This document shows positions 51,153 to 62,712 of a DNA stretch of 64,000 bases, piece by piece. The stretch is from IMG/VR virus record IMGVR_UViG_3300008055_000251. The stretch is one strand, 5' to 3'. Position 1 is the first letter of the stretch, and every line of letters starts with the position of its first letter. The notes under the pieces are model-generated. The model did no database searches. It worked only from the letters and a program-made list of their open reading frames with translations, and was not told where the DNA came from. Both the position numbers and the translations under genes were made by a program. The stretch is from a virus.

Positions 51153-52070
51153 TCAAGCCTTCTCAAGGACGATGGCGCTCTTGGGGTAATAGAGCGCGAG
51201 GCCGCCGATGCGTGCGTGAGCGGCAACGGAGAACTCCAGGGCCTGACGCAGGGGAGGCAGGAACTCCAGGGGCTGGGGGATGTGCAGCTGCAGCTTGTCG
51301 GGGCTGCGGTCGTACACCACGATGCGGTCCTTGGAGAGGGAGCCGCCCGATTTGCCGGCCTCGAGCTCGTTGATGGGCTCGATGGCGGAGATCATCGGGT
51401 TGGTGCGCAGGAAGAACTCCATCACCGTGGTGTCGGAGGTGGTGCTGCGCGGGGTGGTGGAGATGACGCGGTACACGTTGTAGGGCACCAGCATCGTGTT
51501 GGGCATCTCCTTCATGTTGGAGTTCTGCACGAGGCGGGTGGGTGCCTCGTTGAGCAGTTCCAGCATTTCGTCGGTGGTAACACCGGACGTGTCGAACCAC
51601 TTGTTGGGGACAAGTTTGTCGACTTGGTCGTTGTTGAAGAAGCCCTTCATGCCGGAGGGGGCATCGCCGAAGTAGGCGATCTCCTGCACTTTCTCCTCGT
51701 AGGCGCGGCGCACAGCGTTGGCGCGGCGCTGCTCCAGGTTCATGCCGGGCACCATGGCGGCGGCACGGGTTTCCTGGATGGTGTAGGCGAAGGATGCACC
51801 GAGGGAGCGAACCGGGTGGGTCACTTCCTTGCGGAGCACGTCAGCGCGGGGCAGGTCTTGGGCCTTGTCCCCGATCACCTTCATCGAGCCTTGCTTGTCG
51901 AAGACGCGATAGGTGAAGGAGTCAGCGCCGTTGCCCACTTCAGAAGAAATGGGGATCAGGCTGCTGTACTTGATGTCGGCGTACTCAACCTCGAAAGTGC
52001 GAGCCAGGATGGTTTCCAGCTCGCGGGCGAGAAAAACGCCGACCTCGTCGTTACGGATTTCGGTGGTCAT
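51153..52070 (-). CDS. major capsid protein (DUF2184-type, HK97 fold)
   Basis: MTTEIRNDEVGVFLARELETI...YTIQE...EIAYFGDAPSGMKGFFN...GGLALYYP; strong codon bias. Confidence 0.92.
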   Translation of the reverse strand: MTTEIRNDEVGVFLARELETILARTFEVEYADIKYSSLIPISSEVGNGADSFTYRVFDKQGSMKVIGDKAQDLPRADVLRKEVTHPVRSLGASFAYTIQETRAAAMVPGMNLEQRRANAVRRAYEEKVQEIAYFGDAPSGMKGFFNNDQVDKLVPNKWFDTSGVTTDEMLELLNEAPTRLVQNSNMKEMPNTMLVPYNVYRVISTTPRSTTSDTTVMEFFLRTNPMISAIEPINELEAGKSGGSLSKDRIVVYDRSPDKLQLHIPQPLEFLPPLRQALEFSVAAHARIGGLALYYPKSAIVLEKA

Positions 52071-52087
52071 GGGAGGAAGCTCCGTGA

Positions 52088-52699
52088 TCAAGAGTCGGCG
52101 GAGTAGGTCATGCCGGGGATGTCAATCTCCAGCAGAGCCAGACCACCGGCCGTGGTTTCGGACACCCAGCGGGCGCCAGTGACGGCGATGGTTTTGGTGG
52201 CGACGGCGGTTTTGCCGAAGCGACCGAGGAAGGCGCCGGCGGTGGTGCCGGTGTAATCAGCCTTGTAGAAGCGGACGGCATCACCGATGGCGATGGCGTC
52301 AACGCTGTACACCCAGACGACCCCTTTGGAGACCACGTTGACGGTCTCTTTGTCGGGGTAACCCAGACGGCCGTCGGAGTAGACGGGGGTGGGGTTCGGG
52401 GTGTAGGCGGAACCACCGGAGACGCCCTCGAGGACTTGGGAGCTCACGGTGATGCCCTGAATCAGGGTGGTGCCGGTAGCGATCTCGACGGCGAGGGCGT
52501 CGTTGCTGGTGGGGGTGTTGTCAGTCGCGACAAGCACGCCGTAGGGAAGGGCGGCGCCGGACTGGTTGCGGTACGAGCGGCAGACATAGGCCTGCAGGTC
52601 GGCCAGCATGCCCTCGTGACCAGCGACTTCGCGCAGCGGGTAGCTGCCCTGAGCGCCGGCCGGATTGGCGACGGTGGTAGCGGTAAAGGTGACTGCCAT
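52088..52699 (-). CDS. capsid decoration/cement protein
   Basis: ALPYGVLV...VNVVSKGVVWV pattern; between protease and capsid genes. Confidence 0.75.
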   Translation of the reverse strand: MAVTFTATTVANPAGAQGSYPLREVAGHEGMLADLQAYVCRSYRNQSGAALPYGVLVATDNTPTSNDALAVEIATGTTLIQGITVSSQVLEGVSGGSAYTPNPTPVYSDGRLGYPDKETVNVVSKGVVWVYSVDAIAIGDAVRFYKADYTGTTAGAFLGRFGKTAVATKTIAVTGARWVSETTAGGLALLEIDIPGMTYSADS

Positions 52700-52711
52700 G
52701 GAAGGAACTCC

Positions 52712-53974
52712 TTACTTAGTGGCGGTGAGGGGACGCTTCCAGGCTTCCGCTTGCTTGGCGCGGTAGGTGTCTACCGAGGAAGCAGAGCCACGGCCAGCAC
52801 CTTTCAGTGCGTCGCGGAGGGAAGTGGTGCTGTCGGCGCGGTCCTCCTTGGTCTCAGGCTCGTCGCCTTCGTCCTCGGGGGTTTCTTCGCCTGCTTCGTC
52901 CTCGTCGGCATCAGCGCGGGCGGCGAGAATGCCGTCAACAACGCCCTGGATGTAGCCAGATTCAGCGTCTTCGCGAGGAGCGGAGCCTGTGAGGTTCTCG
53001 AACGCCTGGGCGTAGAGGTCCTCGTTATCGATGCCGTCGAATTTGAAGTCTTCGGCGAAGGCGGGTGCCAGCTTCTGCAGCGTGGCGAGGCGAGCAGCGA
53101 CGAGTTGGTCGAGCTCGGCGGTGTCGATGCGGGAGGAAGAGCCGTTTTCGAGCTCGGTGACGCGCTCTTCGAGGGCGTCAGCACGGCCTTCGGCCGCTTC
53201 CTTTTCGTAGGCGAGGGCGTCGATCTCTTCCTGCTGCGCATCGAGCTTGGTGGCAAGCTGATCGCGCTCAGTAGTCACAGACTTGAGCTGGCGCTCCATG
53301 TCCCGTGCGAAGGACTGGACCGCGCTAGCTGCTTCTGCGGGCAGATCGATCTCCAGGCCGTCGAGTTTGACGGAAGCCATTACGGGAGATGCAGGTGTAC
53401 AGGGCTGGAGCGCCGGATCGAAGGCGACGGCATCAGCCGCATCCATGCGATCCATGAGCAGGCGAACCTCCGGGCCAGCCCGGCCGCGGGGGACGATCGC
53501 GATGTGGTTCACCCGGATGTTGCGCTGAACGCCGTCGTAGGACTCGCCCTCGGGGGTGATACCGGGAGTCGGGTCGAAGTCGACCTTGTAGCCGGCAGAG
53601 ACCTCAGTGGCGTCTTTGCGCTTGATCTTTTCGATGCTGTCCTGGTCAGTGACGACTAGGGCCACTTCGACAAAACCGTCGTTGTACCGGACCTGGCTAC
53701 CGGAGTAACCGACCTGGAACTGCTTGGTATTGGCGGAATCGAGAAGAACAGGTGGGTGACCCCACGTTGCGGGTTTCATGCCGAACGTGGAGAGCGATTC
53801 CGGGGAACTGACCTCTTCTGGAGGACGGTATTCCCGGACCTGGGAGCCATCCGCGCGCTTGTAGAGCTGAGTGCCTACACGCGCAGCACGACACCAGACG
53901 CGGAGATAACCCTCGTCGGTGGTTTCGCTGCCCGTAATGGGCGCGAAATCGTAGCGATAAGCGGATGCTGCCAT
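52712..53974 (-). CDS. DUF2213 prohead protease/scaffold protein
   Basis: YRYD start, TDEGYL, TWGHP, EVSAGY, QRNIRVNHIAIVPRGRAGPEVRL; acidic coiled-coil C-terminus. Confidence 0.9.
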   Translation of the reverse strand: MAASAYRYDFAPITGSETTDEGYLRVWCRAARVGTQLYKRADGSQVREYRPPEEVSSPESLSTFGMKPATWGHPPVLLDSANTKQFQVGYSGSQVRYNDGFVEVALVVTDQDSIEKIKRKDATEVSAGYKVDFDPTPGITPEGESYDGVQRNIRVNHIAIVPRGRAGPEVRLLMDRMDAADAVAFDPALQPCTPASPVMASVKLDGLEIDLPAEAASAVQSFARDMERQLKSVTTERDQLATKLDAQQEEIDALAYEKEAAEGRADALEERVTELENGSSSRIDTAELDQLVAARLATLQKLAPAFAEDFKFDGIDNEDLYAQAFENLTGSAPREDAESGYIQGVVDGILAARADADEDEAGEETPEDEGDEPETKEDRADSTTSLRDALKGAGRGSASSVDTYRAKQAEAWKRPLTATK

Positions 53975-54026
53975 GAAGGCAGCTTAAGGCTTATTGCTGC
54001 AAGCGTTAGGCTGATTCGGATAGCGT

Positions 54027-54251
54027 ATGGCCGGAGTGGCGATCTATCGACAGCTTGCACTTTGTGAGCGTATTAGACAGCTAAGAGTAAAATCGGGATA
54101 TACTCAGTCGCAGATAGCGGATAAGCTTGCTATTAGTCAAGCGGCGTATTGTCGGCTGGAAAAAGGGGAGATTGAGTTTGCAGTATCGAAGTTATTTGAG
54201 TTAGCAGACTTGTATGGGATCTCGGCCTCTGCGCTGATCGAAGGGCTTTAA
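54027..54251 (+). CDS. XRE-family HTH protein
   Basis: IRQLRVKSGYTQSQIADKLAISQAAYCRLEKGE. Confidence 0.85.
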   Translation: MAGVAIYRQLALCERIRQLRVKSGYTQSQIADKLAISQAAYCRLEKGEIEFAVSKLFELADLYGISASALIEGL

Positions 54252-54412
54252 GCGTTGTAGACCTCGGTGTGATAGACCACAGCGCCCTCGGAGATCAGGC
54301 GGCGGCGGATGTCAGTGGCTTCGTGGGCAGGGCAAAGAAGCGTCTGGGCTCCGGCGTGGTTCCAGAACCAGATTCGGGTGATGGCGTGCTCGGGGGGATG
54401 AGCGGGTTTCAC
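54248..54412 (-). CDS. small hypothetical protein
   Basis: GTG start overlapping the stop of 54409-55458 (GTGA): MKPAHPPEHAITRIWFW... Confidence 0.55.
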   Translation of the reverse strand: MKPAHPPEHAITRIWFWNHAGAQTLLCPAHEATDIRRRLISEGAVVYHTEVYNA

Positions 54413-55458
54413 CGGCGTGATGTCTTGCCTGAGCACTTCCACTTCGCCCGGGAAAGGCACAGCGGTGTGTTGCGCTCGGCGCCGGAGCAGTCGTAGCCCT
54501 CGGATTTCATGTCACCGAAGCTGCGGGCGCAGTAACGGTCGCCTTTTTCGGTGCCGGGGGCGATGGTGTAGCCCTTAGCGCCGTAGCGGACCTTGTTTTT
54601 GCGGCCGGTCTCGGGGTTGGTGACGACTTTGGTGTACTTCTTGCCGTCCTCGGTATCAGCCTGAGCTTTCTTCTGAGTAGGCACGCAGTTGGGAACCATC
54701 CGCTTGCCCTTGGGCTTCATGCCCACCTGCTCATAGCCCTCCCAGCAAGCGTCGCGGCGGGTGGGTGGCTGGAGTTGCGTAGGGGCGTAGTGCTGGATGT
54801 AGTTGTCGGTCCGGCCGAAACCTTGGGGCTTGCGGCGACGGGGTTGACCGGTGCGGGGATCGAAGGGGATGGCCTCGCGCTCGGGAGTGAAGCTGCTGGG
54901 GGTGAGCTTTGGTTGGGTGCCTTCAGGGAGACGCCGTTGATCAGGGGCGCGATACCCAGGCTCGAACCGACGGCGGGCGGCCTCGGTGCGGAGACGAAGC
55001 TCGCGGAGCGTGGTCTTGGCGGCCATGCCCGTGGCTTCGCCGGCAGCGGCCATGGTGTTGCCGATTTGGGCGATGCGGCGGACTTCTTCGCGGGCGGTCT
55101 GAGCGATGCCGGCCTCTGCGTTCTTCACCGCTGCTGCGGTGTTGGCGCGCATGCGCTGTGTTTTGGACTGGCGCGGGGGCGCAGCTTGTAGCAAGGCGCG
55201 CGGCGACGAACCAGGGAGGCGTGGTGTAGGCGAGGGACCTACCGGATTTGAGGAGGTCGAGCCCGAGGGGCGAGTGGAGCCGGAGCGCCCTCGCTTACTT
55301 AGGGCAGCGGCACCGAGAGCGAGAGCACTTGCTGTGAGGCCAATACCAGCAGCGATTGCGACTTTGGTGGCGGGACCCTTAGTGCATTTTTCGCCCTCGG
55401 AGATGGCACCCTTACCGCATTTCAGATCGAGGCGGATCGAGCTCGGTGTCAGTGTCAT
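54409..55458 (-). CDS. modular head-associated protein (RxD / Cys-motif family)
   Basis: MTLTPSSIRLD-LKCGKGAISEGEKC, TM-like helix, RRD-ACWEGYEQVGMKPKGKRMVPNCVP, C-terminal KVRYG...YCARS...KWKC module. Confidence 0.8.
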   Translation of the reverse strand: MTLTPSSIRLDLKCGKGAISEGEKCTKGPATKVAIAAGIGLTASALALGAAALSKRGRSGSTRPSGSTSSNPVGPSPTPRLPGSSPRALLQAAPPRQSKTQRMRANTAAAVKNAEAGIAQTAREEVRRIAQIGNTMAAAGEATGMAAKTTLRELRLRTEAARRRFEPGYRAPDQRRLPEGTQPKLTPSSFTPEREAIPFDPRTGQPRRRKPQGFGRTDNYIQHYAPTQLQPPTRRDACWEGYEQVGMKPKGKRMVPNCVPTQKKAQADTEDGKKYTKVVTNPETGRKNKVRYGAKGYTIAPGTEKGDRYCARSFGDMKSEGYDCSGAERNTPLCLSRAKWKCSGKTSRR

Positions 55459-56201
55459 AGCGAGAGTACCTCCAGATCAAAGTCGAAGCCGTCGGCATAG
55501 ATAGAATCGAGCTTGCCCCGGCGGCGCATGATCTCCTGGTAGGCCGCGTTGATCTGCTGGGCTTTGCGGGGGTCACCTCCGACATCGGGATGGTTTTCTC
55601 GCATTAGCTGGAGCCATTTCTTCTTGATGTCTGCGTCTGACGCGCCCTCGGACATACCGAGGTCTTTGAATGGGTTCGCTACAGCTTTATTGCTGCCTAC
55701 GCTGCGATTTCTCTGACCACCTGCTGCACCTGGCGCTGTTTGACGAGAACCTCCTACTGATTCCCATGTTCTATTGAAGTTTTCATTGCTTTCTCGTTGT
55801 CCTCTGTTAATTGTTTCAGCAGTTCGACGATAGCTACGGTTGAAGTCACCAAGTGACTTTGCTGCGTAACCATGAAATGCAGCAGCTCCAAGATTCGACG
55901 CAGCTATACTGGTAGCCATCAGTTGCTTTGCTCTATTCTTGGTGCGCGAACCTTCCATGGCTACACCTGAAGCTACAGCTCCAAGTGAGGCATGCATGCC
56001 CGCTAGTGCAGCAAATGCATTGGATTTAGGATGCATAGCGTAAGCCACGCTCCCTACTGCACCAGCTACTCCTCCATATTTAAGGATATTTTCTGCTAGT
56101 GAGGCTTTCGTCGCCGGGCCCTTAGTGCATTTCTCGCCTTTGGAGATAGCGCCTTTACCGCATTTGAGGTCTTGTCTGACCGTGCTCGGAGTAAGGGTCA
56201 T
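55455..56201 (-). CDS. modular head-associated protein with C-terminal J-domain
   Basis: MTLTPSTVRQD-LKCGKG...; NPFKDLG...IKKKWLQLMRENHPDVGGD...INAAYQEI (HPD motif). Confidence 0.85.
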   Translation of the reverse strand: MTLTPSTVRQDLKCGKGAISKGEKCTKGPATKASLAENILKYGGVAGAVGSVAYAMHPKSNAFAALAGMHASLGAVASGVAMEGSRTKNRAKQLMATSIAASNLGAAAFHGYAAKSLGDFNRSYRRTAETINRGQRESNENFNRTWESVGGSRQTAPGAAGGQRNRSVGSNKAVANPFKDLGMSEGASDADIKKKWLQLMRENHPDVGGDPRKAQQINAAYQEIMRRRGKLDSIYADGFDFDLEVLSL

Positions 56202-56204
56202 TGC

Positions 56205-57044
56205 TCACATCCCCAGCTGGGTGTAATCGACCTTGAAGCCTTTGGCGTACATACCGTCTTTGTAGCCAACGCTCTTGCGCCAGGCTTTTTCCTTCTTCTC
56301 GTTCTGAGCGTGCTGCTGGAGGTCGGTCATACCGAACGCGCCCACACGACGGGCTGCGCCCAAGCCACCGGATACACCAGTGAGAAGCGTCGAGCCCAGA
56401 ACGGCGGCTGCTTTGGCTCCACCGGACGCTTTCTCGTTTTTGCCTCCAGTGATGCCAGTAGCGAGTGTTTTGCCGATGTTGTAACCAGAGACCCACTTAC
56501 CGGCCTCGAGCACTCCGCGACCTGCACCTTTAGCTGCTTGGCCGACTTGGACAGCTGCGCTTGGGCCTTGGGCTTTGGTGGCGGGGCCTTTGGTGCACTT
56601 CTCGCCTTGCGAAATAGAGCCTTTGCCGCACTTGAGGTCGAGGCGCTCAGCGGCATCGAGCCGGGCGCGGATGTAGGTGCGGCTGCGGCCTTGGATGCCG
56701 AGCTCGCAAGCAGCGAGGTACTCCTGAGGGGTCAGGGCGTCATTGCGGTCCATCTTCTTGCCGCAACTGCCGTCGCAGGACGCTTTGCGCTTACCGCAGT
56801 TGCAGCCTTCGCCGTCCATCGGCTTCTTGCCGTACATGCCACCGTCCATGGGGGCTTTGGTGTGCTTGGCGCCCTTGGCGCTGCGCTTGCGGGAGTGGGG
56901 CTTGTCGCCGTCCATTTCTTCGCCTTCCATCCCCTCTTCCTCTTCACCCTCGGGCTTGATTTCGATCTCGATGGAGGGTTTCTTGCTCTTATCGGCGCGG
57001 CCTTCGCGGTAGGCGGTGGGCTTCTTGGCGGTGGAAGCGGCCAT
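56205..57044 (-). CDS. modular head-associated protein (RxD / Cys-motif family)
   Basis: RAD, RND, RLD motifs; RLD-LKCGKGSISQGEKCTKGPATK; C-terminal YKDGMYAKGF. Confidence 0.8.
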   Translation of the reverse strand: MAASTAKKPTAYREGRADKSKKPSIEIEIKPEGEEEEGMEGEEMDGDKPHSRKRSAKGAKHTKAPMDGGMYGKKPMDGEGCNCGKRKASCDGSCGKKMDRNDALTPQEYLAACELGIQGRSRTYIRARLDAAERLDLKCGKGSISQGEKCTKGPATKAQGPSAAVQVGQAAKGAGRGVLEAGKWVSGYNIGKTLATGITGGKNEKASGGAKAAAVLGSTLLTGVSGGLGAARRVGAFGMTDLQQHAQNEKKEKAWRKSVGYKDGMYAKGFKVDYTQLGM

Positions 57045-57101
57045 GACTACGGGGCGCGTCCGCCCAAGTTGGGATAGGCCAGTGTAAGAACCTATTCCTG
57101 A

Positions 57102-57974
57102 CTAGGACACAGGAACAGGGGCGATTTGCTCGAAGACGGCGGCCTTGTTGAGGGAAACGGGCTGGTCCCCTAAGCGCTTAACCGCTTGCGCGACCTCGCT
57201 TTTATGCGCTTTTCGCATATTGGCATAATCTGGGTCCATTGAGGCGATGTCAGCGTCCCAAGGTGCTAGGTAACAACGACATCTAGGGTGTAGAGGGACA
57301 CGAATATCTTGCCTACGGTAGATGTTGCCCGCTCTCGGGGCGCAGATTGGGCAGGCGCGGTCATCAGCGGTGGCGTAATACATAACAAGTTCTATGCCTT
57401 GTGCTGCGTAGTACGTATTAGAGGCGTCGTTGTAGGCACGAAGCGATTCGGTGCGCACAATCGCTTCAGCGCGGGACTTCACCACACCGAGGCGGGAGCG
57501 CAGGTCCTGGACCATGGCGTCGGTGGGGCGGCCTTCGGCTACACCCTGGGCGATCGTTGCGGCTGATGTGGCCGCAAAGCGCTCACCGTGTTTGCGGAGG
57601 TAGCCCTTGGCTTGAACCGCAGCGGCCGCGGTTGCTTCAAGAGGGATCGAAACGTCGACGCGGGGGCCGGGCTTGACCTGATCACCGAGCTCGGTTGCCA
57701 CGGTGATTCCGTATCGGGCAGCGGTTTGCAGTAGGAGACGGAGGATCCGGTCATATGCATCGATGCGATCCGCTCGGAAGACGGGAATGAGCTGACGGAA
57801 CTCCTGCAGCAGCGCCAAGTTGCGCTGGGCGGGATCGGTGTAGCCCGCCTTCATGTGGATACGAGCTCGTCGCACCAGGCGGTGGAACCCAGCGTCTAAA
57901 GCACGATCCAACATGAGGACGGTGTCGTCCTCGAGAGTGCGGAGGAGGTCGTTGTACCTCTCGACCAGCTTCAT
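57102..57974 (-). CDS. minor head protein (MuF / SPP1 gp7 family)
   Basis: RAEAIVRTE...DDRACPIC...PLHPRCRC. Confidence 0.9.
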   Translation of the reverse strand: MKLVERYNDLLRTLEDDTVLMLDRALDAGFHRLVRRARIHMKAGYTDPAQRNLALLQEFRQLIPVFRADRIDAYDRILRLLLQTAARYGITVATELGDQVKPGPRVDVSIPLEATAAAAVQAKGYLRKHGERFAATSAATIAQGVAEGRPTDAMVQDLRSRLGVVKSRAEAIVRTESLRAYNDASNTYYAAQGIELVMYYATADDRACPICAPRAGNIYRRQDIRVPLHPRCRCYLAPWDADIASMDPDYANMRKAHKSEVAQAVKRLGDQPVSLNKAAVFEQIAPVPVS

Positions 57975-60853
57975 GCGGCGAGCTTCTCGCTCATGAGGAG
58001 GTGGGTTGCGGAGCGCACGGCATCGAGAGCGTCACCGCGGGAGCGACGGAAACGTTCAGCCGCCGATTGGGTGTCACCACCTCGAATCAGTGCGGCGATG
58101 TAGTCCTCCTGTGCTTCAGGGATTGCAGTTAGCTTGCCCTGATTCTTGAGAGCGTACATTTCCCCGCCACGAAGCCCATTAAGCTCACGGAATTTGAAGC
58201 GTTTGTAGATAGAAGCACGCTTTTTACCAAGGCCATCGTCTTTGAATGGCTTGTTGAATAGAACAGCATTCTCTGGTAGTTGAGCTAGCTGGTCGTCGAA
58301 CATTGTCTTGACTTGCTTCGATACGGCGAGGGACTGCGCTTTGGATACGTCTGCTTTCTGAGAGAAGCTGAGATCAGTCTGGAAGGCGACTCCATACTTG
58401 GGGAATTGACCAGCTGCTCCCTTTCGCTCAGATACAAAGGTCACGAGGGTGTCATCAACAGAGCCAATGCTTAGTACGTGACCTGTCTTGGGATTGACAA
58501 GAGTACTGAAGTTGTTGTCGTTATCAATACTGCGGACTTCCATGCCTTGCATGTCCGCGGATATGCGTGCTAAGCCTACTTTGGCTTTCCCTAACAGCTT
58601 GCTGGCTGGTTGCTGCCATTGTTTAGGGAGCTTGCTAAGGCCCTGGCGCACATCTTTCTCAGACATTCGCTTGATGGCCTGGTCCATGTAACGGGCACCA
58701 CCCGTGTACGCAGTGATGCTTCGACGATTTTTGTAGGCTGCGCGGCCGGCTAAGGCAACTCCAGCCACAGCTCCAACAGCAAGCGCACCCTTGGCCAGGT
58801 TGCTCTTTAGATCACTACCACCGGCTTTGATGTGGCACGTCGCTGATTGCGGAATGCAGATCTTGCCGCATTGCTGTGTCCCAGGTGCGCAGGTGACGCC
58901 GGGCTCGGCTGCTCCTTTCGCACGTTGGGCAGCTTCGCGCGATTGCGCTGGAGTCGGTTTGCTGCATTTCTTGTTCTCAGCGATACCCGATTTGCCGCAG
59001 CGCTTGTCGAGGCGGTTCTGTGTCTCGAGATACGCCCGAACACGCAGTGGCAGTTGTGAGCTTGTTTCTACATCTTCCCTCTCATCATTCTTAGCCTGCA
59101 TGCGCTCGTAAGCAGCTTGAGCGGCCTCTCTCGTGGCGTAGCGAGGTGAACCATCTGGATTTTTCTGCCTCATCATGGAGGCGATTGCTTGCGCTGCGGA
59201 GCGACGACGAGCGGGGCGCGGCGTGCTGCTCTCTCCGGAAGCTGCCCTCGGTTGAGAGCTACGTGCTGTCCTAGTTGTGGCTTGAACACCTGAAGACGCA
59301 CCTCTGAAGTCTTGAGTGGCTTGAAGAATGGCAAATGCTTCTTCAGTTGATTGCACACGAGTACCACTAATTTCTTCTGCTGCTGCTCGGGCAATTCGAT
59401 CTGGAACGATAAAGGAACTGGCTTTCTTCTTAAATCCTTTTGTGTGGTAGTGTGCAAGTAAATACAATTCTTCGTGACCTTTGCCTAGGCTGGACTTGAT
59501 GGCAGCGTTGCCGGTGCGCATCATGGTCTGTACTCGAATAGCATCCGCATCTCCAATAAATTCACTGTAGCCTTTTCCTTTGAATACAGGGTCAATTAAG
59601 CTGGCTCCAGCAGTCTTGTCTAAGATCTTACCTATTTCCTTAAACTCGTTATCATAAAAGTCTACGGTTTTCTTGTAGATCTTAGATGCATAGGATCCAG
59701 GGGTGCTTGTCAGCACACTCTCGATATGCTCAGAAGTGCTCTTGCGTACTGCATCGTCTACTATGCCGTCGGTTAAGCGACGTCTAAAGCCCGCATACGC
59801 ACTCGGGTCAATATCTAGCTCCCCTCTAACAGTGCGCATTTTGAAGCCTTGCTGTTGCGCGAGCTGGACGTAATCACTTCGCTCGCGGCTTATAGATGCG
59901 GCTATCCGATCCTTCATAAATGCCGGAGACTCTAAATCACGTCCGCTCAATCCCCATTGCTGTGCTAAGAACTTCTGTGCAGAAGGTTCAGCATATATAC
60001 TCCTTTTTATGACCTTGTCACCTACTTTTACGGCTGTAGCCGCTTTCCAGAAAGCTCCACGATGCTCCTGGTTCCAGTCATAAAAACTGAGAGGCTCACT
60101 TCCTCCTTGAGGGGACCATACTGCGTTATCCACTTTGTCTAAATCCGCCTTTAGCTTATTACGTCCTTTCATCCATTCGTCGTCGATATTTGTGTTCAGT
60201 ATCCGCTCTCGGGGTGATAGGCCGGCTTCTACAGCAAAAGCGCGCTCTCGGGCGCCTGTAGCGGCCACCCGGGATGTGGCTGTGGTGCGAGTTGTGCGAC
60301 GCTGCTGGCCTAGCCCAGGAATAACGTCGAGTACAGCACTGACGCCATCACGCGCGGCTTCGTTGATACGCCTGCCAACTCCATACTTGTAGCTATTGGT
60401 GCGCATGAGAATAGCGTGTGCACCTAAAGCTCCCCCTACTACAGCGAGGCTTATCCCAATAAGTCTAGATTTTTCTTCTAGGTTTGCTTGCAGCTCTTTC
60501 TTTTGCTGAATGTTGCCAGGAGCTACTTTTACGGCTCCACGAATGATAGCTCGTTTGCCTCCTTCAATTTCAGAGAAGTTACCTTTCGGTAAGCCCTTCG
60601 TAATACGTGTGATACCTCGCTGGATGTTGGCGAGTCCTCCCAGTGGGTCTGTCTTCACCGCTCTCAGGTGCGGATCAGCTCCCTGGCCCTTCAAGCGGCA
60701 GTCCCAGTCCGGTGGGATGCAACGTCCTCCGCACTGGACATTAGGCGGTGTGCATTGCACCGTCCGACGAGTCTTGCCACCACGAAAATCCAGTCGCTCA
60801 CGAGCGGCGAGGTAGGCCGCGGTGCGGACGGTCTCGAGAGAAGGATTGCTCAT
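57971..60853 (-). CDS. large modular head-associated protein (polyvalent-like)
   Basis: 960 aa; three CG-x3-I-x5-C modules, two TM-like helices, C-terminal DDGLGKKRASIYKRFKF segment. Confidence 0.8.
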   Translation of the reverse strand: MSNPSLETVRTAAYLAARERLDFRGGKTRRTVQCTPPNVQCGGRCIPPDWDCRLKGQGADPHLRAVKTDPLGGLANIQRGITRITKGLPKGNFSEIEGGKRAIIRGAVKVAPGNIQQKKELQANLEEKSRLIGISLAVVGGALGAHAILMRTNSYKYGVGRRINEAARDGVSAVLDVIPGLGQQRRTTRTTATSRVAATGARERAFAVEAGLSPRERILNTNIDDEWMKGRNKLKADLDKVDNAVWSPQGGSEPLSFYDWNQEHRGAFWKAATAVKVGDKVIKRSIYAEPSAQKFLAQQWGLSGRDLESPAFMKDRIAASISRERSDYVQLAQQQGFKMRTVRGELDIDPSAYAGFRRRLTDGIVDDAVRKSTSEHIESVLTSTPGSYASKIYKKTVDFYDNEFKEIGKILDKTAGASLIDPVFKGKGYSEFIGDADAIRVQTMMRTGNAAIKSSLGKGHEELYLLAHYHTKGFKKKASSFIVPDRIARAAAEEISGTRVQSTEEAFAILQATQDFRGASSGVQATTRTARSSQPRAASGESSTPRPARRRSAAQAIASMMRQKNPDGSPRYATREAAQAAYERMQAKNDEREDVETSSQLPLRVRAYLETQNRLDKRCGKSGIAENKKCSKPTPAQSREAAQRAKGAAEPGVTCAPGTQQCGKICIPQSATCHIKAGGSDLKSNLAKGALAVGAVAGVALAGRAAYKNRRSITAYTGGARYMDQAIKRMSEKDVRQGLSKLPKQWQQPASKLLGKAKVGLARISADMQGMEVRSIDNDNNFSTLVNPKTGHVLSIGSVDDTLVTFVSERKGAAGQFPKYGVAFQTDLSFSQKADVSKAQSLAVSKQVKTMFDDQLAQLPENAVLFNKPFKDDGLGKKRASIYKRFKFRELNGLRGGEMYALKNQGKLTAIPEAQEDYIAALIRGGDTQSAAERFRRSRGDALDAVRSATHLLMSEKLAA

Positions 60854-62712
60854 TAGTACTGCTCCCAGCCGGCGCGGAGGGCTTCTGCTTCGCCCTCGGA
60901 TACAGAGGAGAGCCCTGCCACAGTCTGCCGCGGATAGAAGGATGCGATTGCACGTTGTGCGGCTTTCACGCTGCGAAATCCGATGGCATAAGGACCGGCG
61001 ATCAGTTCTCCCTGACGGTCAAAGCGCGCTCGATACAGCTTGCGTCCGTAAGAGCGATGTGGGCCTACAACAAATAGCGATGCATTCTCTGTGGTATCAA
61101 TTCGCTGCCCGTCGGGTGCAATCAAGTGGCCGATCCGATTGCCATCCCGCTCACCGGTGACGCGGATTCGGTATCCATGCGCCTGGTAGGTGTCAAGGGC
61201 GTCGAGGTTCTGCTGACCCTCTGGAAGAATTGGAGCCTCCTCTTCAGGCGGCGCAGTCTCGTCCAAGGGAGCGCCTGGCTCTTGGGGACCGGAAGCCATG
61301 GCCTGAGCCTGGGCCTCCATATTCATCATTTGCATCTGGAAGTCTGATTCAGCTTTTACCCGCATCTGCTCGCTAAACTCTTCATCTAGTGTGGTTTCTA
61401 TGCTGTACTCCGTACCGCCGAAACGTGCTTCTCGTATCTCAATGGGATTTAGAACACCCATATTTACGTACTGCGAATCGACGGAGGCCATTTTTGCTCT
61501 TAAATCTGCTTTTTCACTTGCTGTCTCGGTGAAAACGCTCGGGAATTCGACGCTCCACTTCTGAGGGGGCCGTCCTCGGGTGGGTCCTTCGCGCGAGGCG
61601 AGGATGTAGGTGAAGACTTCGGTCACCGCCGTGCGGCAGTAGAGCTCCTGCCACTGCTCGACGAGAGTTGCCCAGACGCGCTCCTCGAAGCGGCCCTCTT
61701 TGCCCAGGCCCCCGGGGGAGTCGCCCATGAGGATCGAGGCGGGCCAGCCGGTCGCTGCTTGCAGATCCTTCACGAAGGGATCGGTCGCCGTGGCGATGTT
61801 GCTGAGTGCACGGTTGAGGAAGCTCAGTTCCTCTTCGGTGTCCACCACCATGCCGCCATAGACCGAGCGGCTGAGGTTGTTGGCCTCGAGGCGCTTGCGC
61901 AGATCGCTCTCGTTCCCAGAAGCAATGCGGTTGAAAAGACCGGGGATCTTGTGGACGAACAGGTCCGAGTCGGTGGTCATCGACTCCAGGCCCGACATCG
62001 CGGTCTCGTAGCGCTTGTACGCCTCCCACACGAGCTGAAGCACCGGCAGGCCCCACCCTGTGTTGCGCACTCGGACGTTCCAGGGGAGGTAAAGCCCGTC
62101 GAAGCGCGCTACGCGGGATGAGTGTATGCGCACATTGACATATTGCCCTTGTTGCTCGGGCGTGAGCCGCTGCGCGGTGGTGATCCGGTAGTGCGAGGGC
62201 TTGGTGTAGTCCGTGATCGAGAAGTCTTCCGGAATCAGCTCCCAGCGGGAGAGGGGGACATAGCCCCGGACAGCGCGGATGCGTGCGACGTCGACTGGCT
62301 CCTCCGGAGGGAGGCCGTCATCGATGAGGAGCACCAGGCCGGCGCCGCCGTAGAGGCGCTGAAGCTTGACGACCTCGGCGAAGGCGTGATGGAACTGAGT
62401 GGCTTTGAGGTACTCCTCGAAGTCGGCGATCAGGTCGTTGGCGTTCTTCTGCTCGTCACCACCAAGTTTGATCGTGGTCTGGTGGCGCAGGATCTCGTCG
62501 GAGATGGCGTCGACGTAGCGCCTTGGGATGCCGTGGACATATAGGGCCTCGAGTTCGCCCTCGCTGAGGATGGGTTTAGCGCCTACGGAAGTAGCAACTG
62601 TTTTGTCCTTGGTCGTTAGACCCATGCCGGACAGTACATTTACTAACGCACCATCATTCCGGAAATTATCAGCATTCGTTTCCACGTTGGTCGTAGGCTG
62701 ACTGATATACAA
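60853..62712 (-). CDS. portal protein (DUF1073-type) with C-terminal extension
   Basis: FRNDGALVNVLSGMG, RRYVDAISDEILR, RLYGGAGL, IHSSRV, GWPASILMGDSPGGL. Confidence 0.9.
   Translation of the reverse strand: MYISQPTTNVETNADNFRNDGALVNVLSGMGLTTKDKTVATSVGAKPILSEGELEALYVHGIPRRYVDAISDEILRHQTTIKLGGDEQKNANDLIADFEEYLKATQFHHAFAEVVKLQRLYGGAGLVLLIDDGLPPEEPVDVARIRAVRGYVPLSRWELIPEDFSITDYTKPSHYRITTAQRLTPEQQGQYVNVRIHSSRVARFDGLYLPWNVRVRNTGWGLPVLQLVWEAYKRYETAMSGLESMTTDSDLFVHKIPGLFNRIASGNESDLRKRLEANNLSRSVYGGMVVDTEEELSFLNRALSNIATATDPFVKDLQAATGWPASILMGDSPGGLGKEGRFEERVWATLVEQWQELYCRTAVTEVFTYILASREGPTRGRPPQKWSVEFPSVFTETASEKADLRAKMASVDSQYVNMGVLNPIEIREARFGGTEYSIETTLDEEFSEQMRVKAESDFQMQMMNMEAQAQAMASGPQEPGAPLDETAPPEEEAPILPEGQQNLDALDTYQAHGYRIRVTGERDGNRIGHLIAPDGQRIDTTENASLFVVGPHRSYGRKLYRARFDRQGELIAGPYAIGFRSVKAAQRAIASFYPRQTVAGLSSVSEGEAEALRAGWEQY

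Follow-up and report, generated by a model that had tools for sequence, protein, structure and literature searches.

The 64,000-nucleotide stretch of viral DNA analysed here (IMG/VR record IMGVR_UViG_3300008055_000251; the window, at its full length) carries in its head-gene cluster a short, cysteine-containing peptide module that recurs within and between neighbouring genes and is often followed by a Gly/Ala-rich hydrophobic helix. An earlier note, made from the letters of the window alone, had described this module and proposed that it is a reusable adaptor heading membrane-inserting cargo. The observed basis of the present analysis is the architecture of the module units, their conservation, their strict linkage to head genes, the swapping of the cargo behind them and a motif at their junctions. 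These observations are best read, in a judgement balanced about evenly between right and wrong, as head-packaged, protease-trimmed and injected effector cassettes, of which the packaging, the cleavage and the injection are predicted steps.

Module copies and genes of the window

The module lies in four co-directional genes (p960, p279, p248 and p349), bounded by the portal gene on one side and the head scaffold/protease gene on the other. The genes of this region are the following:

60853..62712 (-), portal protein (Pfam Phage_portal_3, 8.8e-55), the upstream limit of the cassette region
57971..60853 (-), p960, 960 residues, without a family match, its start coupled to the portal stop
57102..57974 (-), MuF-like minor head protein, 290 residues (Pfam Phage_Mu_F, 3.9e-14)
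56205..57044 (-), p279, first of three small genes after the MuF gene
55455..56201 (-), p248, second small gene (Pfam DnaJ, 3.9e-7)
54409..55458 (-), p349, third small gene (phrog_727 and phrog_9737 matches, PHROG function unknown)
54027-54251 (+), XRE-type helix-turn-helix (HTH) gene, 74 residues, antisense, between the cargo island and the protease gene
52712..53974 (-), DUF2213 (Pa193_gp24-type) head maturation protease/scaffold protein (Pfam 1.9e-41, phrog_530 1.9e-85)
3' third of the window (-), terminase large subunit fragment, first in the order of the minus-strand head module

A six-frame search of the window with the regular expression CG-x(2-3)-[CGASK]-I-x5-C returned exactly the six copies in four genes that the earlier note had counted, all on the minus strand, with three in p960 and one in each small gene. 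Two of them lie within four-Cys units, as had been described, and the hydrophobic helices quoted from p349 and p960 are present. The copies, scored where indicated with a hidden Markov model (HMM) of the module, and the helices are located as follows:

60698..60754 (-), four-Cys unit 1 of p960, residues 34-52, C-x6-CG-x2-CI-x5-C (regular expression)
58958..59014 (-), two-Cys module of p960, residues 614-632, RLD-KR-CGKSGIAENKKC-SK (12 bits, module HMM)
58835..58891 (-), four-Cys unit 2 of p960, residues 655-673, C-x6-CG-x2-CI-x5-C (regular expression)
56586..56645 (-), two-Cys module of p279, residues 134-153 (56 bits, module HMM)
56118..56201 (-), leader and two-Cys module of p248, residues 1-28 (73 bits, module HMM)
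55375..55458 (-), leader and two-Cys module of p349, residues 1-28 (71 bits, module HMM)
60404..60460 (-), hydrophobic Gly/Ala helix 1 of p960, residues 132-150
58745..58798 (-), hydrophobic Gly/Ala helix 2 of p960, residues 686-703
55300..55362 (-), hydrophobic helix of p349, residues 33-53

Four of the six copies have RxD two residues before their first Cys, in agreement with the claim that most follow this motif closely; the N-terminal unit of p960 has RLD 11 residues upstream, and the sixth copy has no RxD nearby. The two-Cys module of p960 marks the border between the conserved and the variable part of that protein. At the DNA level, three copies form a repeat of 69 nt with pairwise identities of 81-83%, and each pair differs by 11-13 synonymous versus 2-3 non-synonymous codons over 23 codons. 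Because synonymous differences are many and non-synonymous ones few, selection acts on the peptide and not on the DNA, as the earlier note had supposed. The module peptide is under purifying selection, and its copies are neither recent duplicates nor conversion tracts.

The proteins that carry the module are built to different plans. In p248, the N-terminal leader and module are followed by three Gly/Ala-rich helices, a J-domain with its HPD motif and a C-terminal tail. The order in p349 is leader and module, a strong hydrophobic helix, a Pro/Ser-rich linker and small Cys modules. Its C-terminal half (54514-54822, (-)) holds CWEGY...PNCVP and KVRYG...YCARS...KWKC regions with PHROG matches of unknown function only; counterparts of the KVRYG...YCARS region in relatives match Pfam DUF5872. 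In relatives of p349 the sequence continues beyond ...SRR as D-G-ALTPGK, resembling the beginning of another unit that has been cut short. In p279, an acidic/basic N-terminal region with a CxC...C...C cluster leads through the junction RND/ALTP (a slash marks a junction here and below) to an internal module, which is followed by a Gly-rich stretch of weak hydrophobicity and by a tail. The large protein p960 consists of a conserved N-terminal region of ~600 residues, module(s), a hydrophobic helix and a swappable C-terminal cargo. The cargo domains and tails recognised in these proteins are listed below (AF2, AlphaFold2):

55533..55670 (-), J-domain of p248, residues 178-223, HPD at 204-206 (Pfam DnaJ; AF2)
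58133..58705 (-), C-terminal cargo of p960, residues 717-907, predicted GNAT-like alpha/beta fold (VIA-align, Foldseek)
56208..56264 (-), C-terminal tail of p279, YKDGMYAKGFKVDYTQLGM
55458..55514 (-), C-terminal tail of p248, KLD/SIYADGFDFDLEVLSL (alignment A2)

AF2 models the three helices and the J-domain of p248 with confidence, and a wide VIA search with this model returned generic helical matches only (Z<=9.5). The p960 model has a mean predicted local distance difference test score (pLDDT) of 73.7. Its cargo aligned in VIA-align with SpeG, RimL and other GNATs (Z 6-7, ~125 aligned residues, root-mean-square deviation 3.3-5) and gave local GNAT matches in Foldseek (probability 0.85-0.87), which suggests a GNAT-like domain on the strength of a moderate match only. 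With the p960 model taken as a whole, Foldseek returned no match in PDB or BFVD at E<=0.001; the confident core of the model (residues 180-520), covered by these searches only as part of the whole, had no match either. For p349 and for the p960 core, no usable match came from the ESM Atlas.

Among 148 homologues of p960, the C-terminal third is replaced in many by kinase or LRAT domains. A kinase, LRAT/NlpC-P60 or zincin-like domain was also observed in the place of the GNAT-like domain. The family keeps a fixed plan: a four-Cys unit (residues ~35-55) precedes a first helix at about 130, the mid module lies at about 600-620, and a second helix follows it by ~30 residues, near 640; in longer members there is also a third module with its helix near 900-930.

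The genes around the module are tightly packed. The junctions of portal with p960 (TAATG), p960 with MuF (ATGA) and p248 with p349 (ATGA) are start/stop overlaps that couple these genes in pairs, and p279 and p248 are separated by 3 nt. Phage_Mu_F is the sole Pfam domain of the MuF protein, which has no toxin domain. Genes for a cement protein and the major capsid protein come after the DUF2213 gene in the head module, and the remaining window encodes a prim-pol/helicase, a family A DNA polymerase, fibre proteins and a 1,877-residue, tape-measure-sized protein without a match in the Pfam search. The closest isolate is the Synechococcus siphovirus S-CBS4 (56% capsid protein identity), and blastn with the module region against isolate phage genomes gave no match. 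The position of the HTH gene is kept in 4 related contigs with listed genes and in 14 long loci that were compared; S-CBS4 has a 'transcriptional repressor' in its place.

The module family and its exchange island

The module consists of a leader of 8-11 residues, xLTPxxhRxD, followed by LKCGKGAISxGEKCxKG. The full consensus is M-x-LTP-x3-R-x-D-LKCGKGAIS-x-GEKC-T-KG, in which R, D, L, K, C, G, G, I and C are the invariant positions. One variant, GKPCGxSHIPxxxxC, occurs in the p960 family and in some kinases, and the four-Cys form is the other. Residues 1-45 of p248, as the query in word-indexed searches, retrieved 180 proteins of 136-434 residues and 37 longer ones, and a module profile run against 1.84 billion cluster representatives (E<=0.001) matched at least 227 metagenome clusters (50% identity clustering). 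The module stands at the extreme N-terminus in 105 of 120 homologues, with the start M-[TAS]-L-T-P-x3-R-x-D, and its first Cys falls at residue 12-16 in nearly all 120. Over 300 random pairs of proteins with an N-terminal module, the module is 79% identical and the remainder 18%, i.e. unrelated. This recurrence across proteins and the codon differences described above bear out the earlier claim of a reusable unit under peptide-level selection. The module is not in Pfam, NCBIfam or PHROGs, a PDB sequence search with the two-Cys form gave no match, and in GTDB species-representative genomes it appeared, among the matches listed, on one 1-kb contig only.

The helix downstream of the module was defined as a 19-residue window with a mean Kyte-Doolittle value of at least 1.4, within 70 residues. 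By this measure of hydropathy, which is no substitute for a dedicated predictor of membrane helices, a helix follows 53% of 477 module occurrences (287 mutually related proteins), versus 1.9% of 9,565 control windows from the same proteins. The helix begins a median of 18 residues past the second Cys, is 53% Gly+Ala, shows a small-xxx-small-xxx-small pattern in 153 of 179 distinct cases and is flanked by net positive charge on both sides (+2.3 and +3.4). The module thus heads a hydrophobic Gly/Ala helix, as had been claimed, and the helices are membrane-like by hydropathy.

The cargo after the helix varies. It is a J-domain in 49 of the 120 proteins, and in others a kinase of Pkinase/RIO1/Kdo/APH/ABC1 type, including Ser/Thr types; DUF5872, LRAT/NlpC-P60, DUF6496, a weak M90/ATLF-like zincin and the GNAT-like fold of p960 complete the repertoire. 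Fused proteins with two units are common. Kinase and J-domain share one polypeptide in P0142, P0143 and P0149, and the metagenomic P0404 (936 residues), which has no close relative in IMG/VR, contains four modules, each followed by a hydrophobic stretch, together with LRAT, DUF6496, the CWEGY...PNCVP module and a J-domain. The unit is therefore used in two ways, in a gene of its own or as one of several beads along a polyprotein; the separate genes are translationally coupled, and concatenated units lie in one polypeptide encoded after the portal gene. In S-CBS4, a DUF6496-type segment, FKxGTL...GKxVxSRxQAIAIAxSEA, was recognised by eye in gp018, which lies between the MuF and protease genes (L001:9901-10209); it is the same bead that Pfam identifies in P0404, and S-CBS4 has no Cys module.

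Many of these proteins also end alike. A C-terminal tail motif, [KR]xD-S[IV][YW]AxGF..D...L, is present in ~40% of the non-redundant open reading frames (ORFs) with a module (90/221), including p248 and p279, and D232, G238, F239 and D242 of the p248 tail are invariant in the alignment. The tail is a candidate packaging signal, removable propeptide or degron. The motif ends with aliphatic residues, and the tail is also found in a few small island proteins that lack the module.

This architecture bears on the earlier suggestion of leader/core logic reminiscent of bacteriocin precursors. Under that explanation, the proteins would be bacteriocin-like or ribosomally synthesised and post-translationally modified peptide (RiPP) precursors, with the module as the leader for modification or export of a membrane-active core, and a common N-terminal segment before a hydrophobic Gly/Ala stretch is what they would share with such precursors. 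The proteins, however, range from 141 to >1,500 residues and contain folded enzyme domains or chaperone J-domains, the module is also internal and in tandem, and RiPP-type modification enzymes, a C39 peptidase and an ABC exporter are absent from all loci listed. The suggestion was rejected as contradicted by the protein architecture, and we give it next to no credence.

Loci with the module were drawn from IMG/VR, ENA, JGI and Logan. In 43 of 44, the module genes lie on the same strand between the MuF and DUF2213 genes, the exception being the 1-kb contig, and in the same 43 the flanking genes are homologous to the portal, p960, cement and capsid proteins of the window. The shared order is portal, p960, MuF, module genes, DUF2213 protein, cement protein and major capsid protein. 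The profile search and survey of genomic context that the earlier note had advised accordingly show a module that is widespread beyond this genome and tied to head genes.

Within this frame the contents of the island are hypervariable. The 39 distinct complete islands measure 2.4-7.8 kb, hold up to five module genes and occur in nearly as many combinations; in one short island, no module gene was called by a crude procedure that starts ORFs at the first Met. Nearly all islands open, after MuF, with a p279-type gene. In 80 IMG/VR loci the capsid protein is 88-99% identical to that of the window, and in the 14 long loci compared in detail the N-terminal region of p960 is just 27-45% identical and the cargo genes are replaced. 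One of these comparisons, of IMGVR_UViG_3300035703_000069 (L168) with window positions 51153-62712, gave identities of 99% for the capsid protein, 98% for the protease and 93% for the HTH protein, versus 73% for p349, 69% for MuF, 75% for the portal and 45% for the N-terminal region of p960. Of p248 only the 32-residue module is recognisable in L168, and the C-terminal domain of p960 has no match in that locus. This is a sharp mosaic boundary, and the module island is an exchange hot spot inside a conserved head module.

Since the module marks the points at which cargo is swapped, it might be a DNA-level signal, such as a recombination or cassette-exchange site or an RNA element, and have no peptide function. 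Copies within a genome are indeed slightly more alike than copies from different genomes (0.886 vs 0.858, significant by permutation), an excess too small to tell co-adaptation from shared ancestry. Where two copies have the same residue, they share its codon at a frequency of 0.59 within a genome and 0.54 between genomes; when copies of one genome are compared, synonymous differences affect about half of the codons, and the 69-nt repeat of the window is only 81-83% identical. A DNA signal was rejected, being largely refuted by this synonymous/non-synonymous pattern, and is extremely improbable.

The small-xxx-small zipper of 153/179 helices and the several units per genome raise another possibility, in which hairpin and glycine-zipper helix form an oligomeric channel or anchor in the host envelope for DNA passage and the cargo domains are secondary passengers. 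The p960 model packs helix 1 into a four-helix bundle (residues 60-180), burying the hydrophobic helix as in membrane-refolding proteins. In this the proteins would resemble the ejection proteins of podoviruses; ejection proteins are reported to be mosaic and to change conformation (PMC8954989), which likewise speaks for such a channel. Against it, the number and type of units vary from 1 to 5 per island, which would be odd for an essential channel, and the structural matches of the helices are generic. The phage is also long-tailed and encodes a tape-measure-sized protein of 1,877 residues, and in siphoviruses the tape measure normally provides the DNA conduit. A channel function is thus considered improbable.

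The chemistry of the module can be approached through its cysteines. In 404 of 497 distinct module contexts neither of the two extra Cys is present, in 92 both are, and the only context with just one of them is a spurious off-frame match. Subject to the caveat that the independent origins of this pattern are few, two or four Cys are as expected for disulfide pairs and would be awkward for a four-ligand metal site. AF2 models of the four-Cys units of p960 are beta-hairpins (pLDDT about 55-68), with strands 39-41/44-46 in unit 1 (pLDDT about 60) and 659-662/665-668 in unit 2.

Two known extracellular repeats resemble the module. The first is DUF4215/TIGR02232 (myxo_disulf_rpt), with the shared core C-G-x-G-x-[IV]-x-x-G-E-x-C-x-x-G: in a single DUF4215 protein (P0371), 16 repeats were recognised by the module profile, and hhalign aligned the two families over 21 columns with a probability of 88% and a pairwise E of 2.8e-6. 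The curated DUF4215 and TIGR02232 models gave no match at E<=0.01 (Pfam) or E<=0.1 (NCBIfam). DUF4215 repeats are tandem, acidic, longer, Cys-rich and secreted, whereas the phage module is single, has 2 or 4 Cys and no signal peptide, and is basic, with Lys where the repeat has Asp (C-T/H-K-G vs CDDGN). The resemblance may reflect homology or convergence. The second is LDL-A, whose first four Cys are mirrored by the four-Cys unit (C-x6-C-x3-C-I-P-x2-W-x-C), likewise with a predicted beta-hairpin; 12 of the 14 weak PDB sequence matches of this unit are N-terminal halves of LDL-A, at non-significant E values of 0.2-9. The phage unit lacks Cys 5 and 6 and the acidic, Ca-binding half, and has no Pfam match.

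The earlier note had left open whether metal or disulfides stabilise the module. If the module were a knuckle for zinc or another metal and served to bind DNA, RNA or a partner, with two-Cys copies pairing up to complete a site, this would account for the invariant Cys pairs in a Lys-rich context, for the His after the second Cys in some copies and for the SHIP variant of the p960 family, and the multiple copies per genome could pair. The Cys number, however, is 2 or 4 and never 3, the spacings (x6, x3, x6; x10) are unlike those of CxxC knuckles, the His is not conserved, and the closest look-alikes are disulfide modules of the extracellular space. A metal knuckle is therefore quite unlikely, more so than a channel. 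On the same grounds of Cys number and closest look-alikes, a disulfide-stapled hairpin appears the more parsimonious chemistry, and because both look-alikes are extracellular disulfide modules, the module is read as a small basic hairpin that would be stapled once the particle is outside the cell.

The phages themselves are a lineage of uncultured siphoviruses of picocyanobacteria, probably freshwater ones. Among the matches listed, the closest cellular relatives of the p248 J-domain are from Cyanobium, Synechococcus and Aphanothece (34-38% identity), which points to freshwater or estuarine picocyanobacteria as likely hosts.

The junction motif and the DUF2213 protein

Where units are fused, a conserved junction separates them. 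Internal units are preceded by [KR]-R-[TS]-D and continue with [SA]-LTP-x3-R-x-D-LKCG, and multi-unit proteins keep the junction [KR]R[TS]D/[SA]LTP. The combination basic-x-Asp-Ser/Ala also stands before the C-terminal tail (KLD/SIYADGF), and p349 has basic-x-Asp ahead of its small Cys modules (GFGRTD/N, PTRRD/A).

Enrichment of the motif R.D[SA] was assessed by shuffling tests, with the following observed and expected counts, which come from related sequences and so overstate independence:

Window DUF2213 protein (scaffold part): 6 vs 0.6 expected, p<0.002
66 DUF2213 family members: 360 vs 38.8 expected
Small module proteins: 134 vs 37.5 expected
p960 family: 277 vs 107 expected

The motif is thus ~9-fold over-represented in the scaffold. 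No excess was seen in the capsid, cement, terminase or MuF proteins, and R.E, K.E and D.R were not enriched in these tests, R.E being depleted in the DUF2213 scaffold part. The distant DUF2213 homologue of coliphage T1 (locus L247:4986-6098) contains [KR].D 12 times vs 4.8 expected (p<0.002). An RxD near the N-termini of capsid and portal proteins, conserved also in S-CBS4 and T1, was not counted as evidence, since a single site in each protein could arise by chance.

A scaffold normally contains many sites at which its own prohead protease cuts, as established for T4. Since the motif is enriched in the scaffold, we infer basic-x-Asp, with the cut before Ser or Ala, as the likely site of the DUF2213 protease, and cargo units that are substrates of this protease would be placed inside the prohead. 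The scaffold patterns of T1 and the window together suggest a conserved basic-x-Asp cleavage specificity for the widespread DUF2213 family.

A further indication comes from Pbunavirus Pa193, which has the same type of head module. Its gp20 and gp21 are numbered between the portal gp19 and the DUF2213 protein gp24 and listed near capsid, neck and tail genes, and their products were detected in virions by liquid chromatography-mass spectrometry (PMC11456595).

Known systems, explanation and significance

In phage T4, the capsid targeting sequence is cleaved after Glu by gp21. The T4 internal proteins and Alt offer the closest functional parallel in that they, too, are consecutive head-linked proteins which share an N-terminal leader of ~10 residues with an acidic end and have unrelated bodies. 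In the present system, packaging and leader cleavage are predicted; its protease is of the DUF2213 type (phrog_530) with the inferred site basic-x-Asp, and T4 lacks the Cys hairpin and hydrophobic helix that follow the leader of the phage module. Other differences are the internal position of the module in polyproteins and the second conserved element, the C-terminal tail. No Pfam or PHROG match indicated a relationship to the T4 internal proteins, Alt or gp21.

The MuF polymorphic toxins of temperate phages, as Jamet et al. are said to have described them in 2017, reportedly combine a conserved head-associated N-terminus with swappable C-terminal effectors. The p960 family likewise swaps C-terminal effector domains. 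Unlike in these toxins, the MuF protein of the window is separate and toxin-free, the carrier is the unrelated N-terminal region of p960 or the 30-residue module, and an immunity gene is not evident.

Polyvalent proteins of phages and conjugative elements are large, head-gene-linked and encoded close to MuF and portal genes. They string conflict-type domains such as kinase, GNAT and peptidase together; packaging and injection are predicted for them, and smaller ORFs beside them carry alternative cassettes (Iyer et al. 2017, PMC5512222). The module system resembles them in its domain repertoire, in its linkage to MuF, portal and late structural genes in 43/44 loci and in the presence of at least two effector-type domains per polypeptide in relatives, p960 of the window having one recognisable cargo domain. 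It differs in that most units of the window are separate small genes. The survey in PMC5512222 contains neither the word 'cysteine' nor 'transmembrane', and it describes no repeated Cys hairpin and helix before cargo, no J-domain cargo and no conserved junction or tail motifs. In function the module system appears to resemble the T4 capsid targeting sequence and the polyvalent and MuF-polymorphic proteins, and by sequence it belongs to none of these families.

In the explanation as packaged and injected cassettes, the conserved ends would act as address labels for incorporation into the prohead, beside the portal, p960 and MuF. The DUF2213-type prohead protease would then cut basic-x-Asp before Ser or Ala, separating the units and trimming leader and tail, and the hairpin would become disulfide-stapled in the oxidised virion. 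Hairpin and helix would be retained on every mature cargo. After ejection, the hydrophobic helix would hold the cargo at the host membrane, where DnaK co-chaperone, kinases, acyltransferases and peptidases could act on host proteins. It is possible, with a probability that we set clearly below even, that this amounts to an undescribed polymorphic effector-delivery system of cyanobacterial siphoviruses, in which stapled hairpin and glycine-zipper helix are a universal handle for head loading and membrane placement, the cassettes are cut by the protease and the tail is a second removable signal. The tail would be a signal either for packaging or for the destruction of unpackaged copies.

Several points weigh against packaging and injection. 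The lineage is known from genes alone, with no virion proteome or isolate, and tblastn of the module and p960 against 50,697 isolate phage genomes gave no match. In S-CBS4 this interval of the head module is occupied by non-structural genes (for glycosyltransferases, a methyltransferase and HNH), so that position alone is no proof of packaging. A hydrophobic helix with cytoplasm-acting cargo is also the plan of ordinary membrane-anchored proteins, and the best NCBIfam match of p248 is DjlA, below threshold at 28.5 bits vs a cut-off of 162. AF2 gives no confident fold for the two-Cys module (p248 monomer pLDDT 45-53). The relatedness of the sequences behind the motif counts must be added here. 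The protease role and the specificity of DUF2213 proteins are supported at the level of annotation only, and the authors of the Pa193 paper, who regard gp24 as a putative scaffold, could not decide if it undergoes cleavage (PMC11456595).

Some of these points belong to the most serious competing explanation, in which the proteins are unpackaged, late-expressed, membrane-anchored takeover proteins that act in the producing cell. The module would then be a common juxtamembrane element for sorting or for a shared partner, or a small, exposed, disulfide-bonded loop. The combination of helix and cytoplasm-acting cargo, the DjlA match and the non-structural genes of S-CBS4 fit this explanation, as do the antisense HTH gene inside the island and the alignment of the p248 J-domain model with membrane-anchored Tim14 (Z 7.8). 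DjlA and p248 share N-terminal hydrophobic helices and a C-terminal J-domain with HPD, a likeness of general architecture only, and DjlA is a cellular gene without Cys hairpin or C-terminal tail. The positive charge on both helix flanks, on the other hand, fits poorly with normal insertion of a short N-tail; p960, whose translation is coupled to that of the portal and MuF genes, contains the module as well; the unit junctions carry the motif over-represented in the scaffold; and the module was never seen off this head module, the 1-kb contig being its only occurrence among the matches listed in cellular genomes. Action in the producing cell is accordingly rated unlikely, while remaining the strongest of the competing explanations.

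Pfam, NCBIfam and PHROGs contain neither the module nor the tail nor the p960 core, all three of which are therefore useful as new annotation markers. Should the explanation as head-packaged, trimmed and injected cassettes be correct, leader, 17-residue Cys hairpin and helix would constitute a compact, portable head-loading tag, a counterpart in another head lineage of the T4 capsid targeting sequence. The basic-x-Asp site, cut before Ser or Ala, would be the first specificity for the DUF2213 family, which includes the proteins of coliphage T1 and of Pseudomonas PB1-like phages. The phages of abundant lake picocyanobacteria would then carry a fast-changing arsenal of DnaK co-chaperone, kinases and acyltransferases into the cell, and this arsenal would bear directly on how host defences are overcome.

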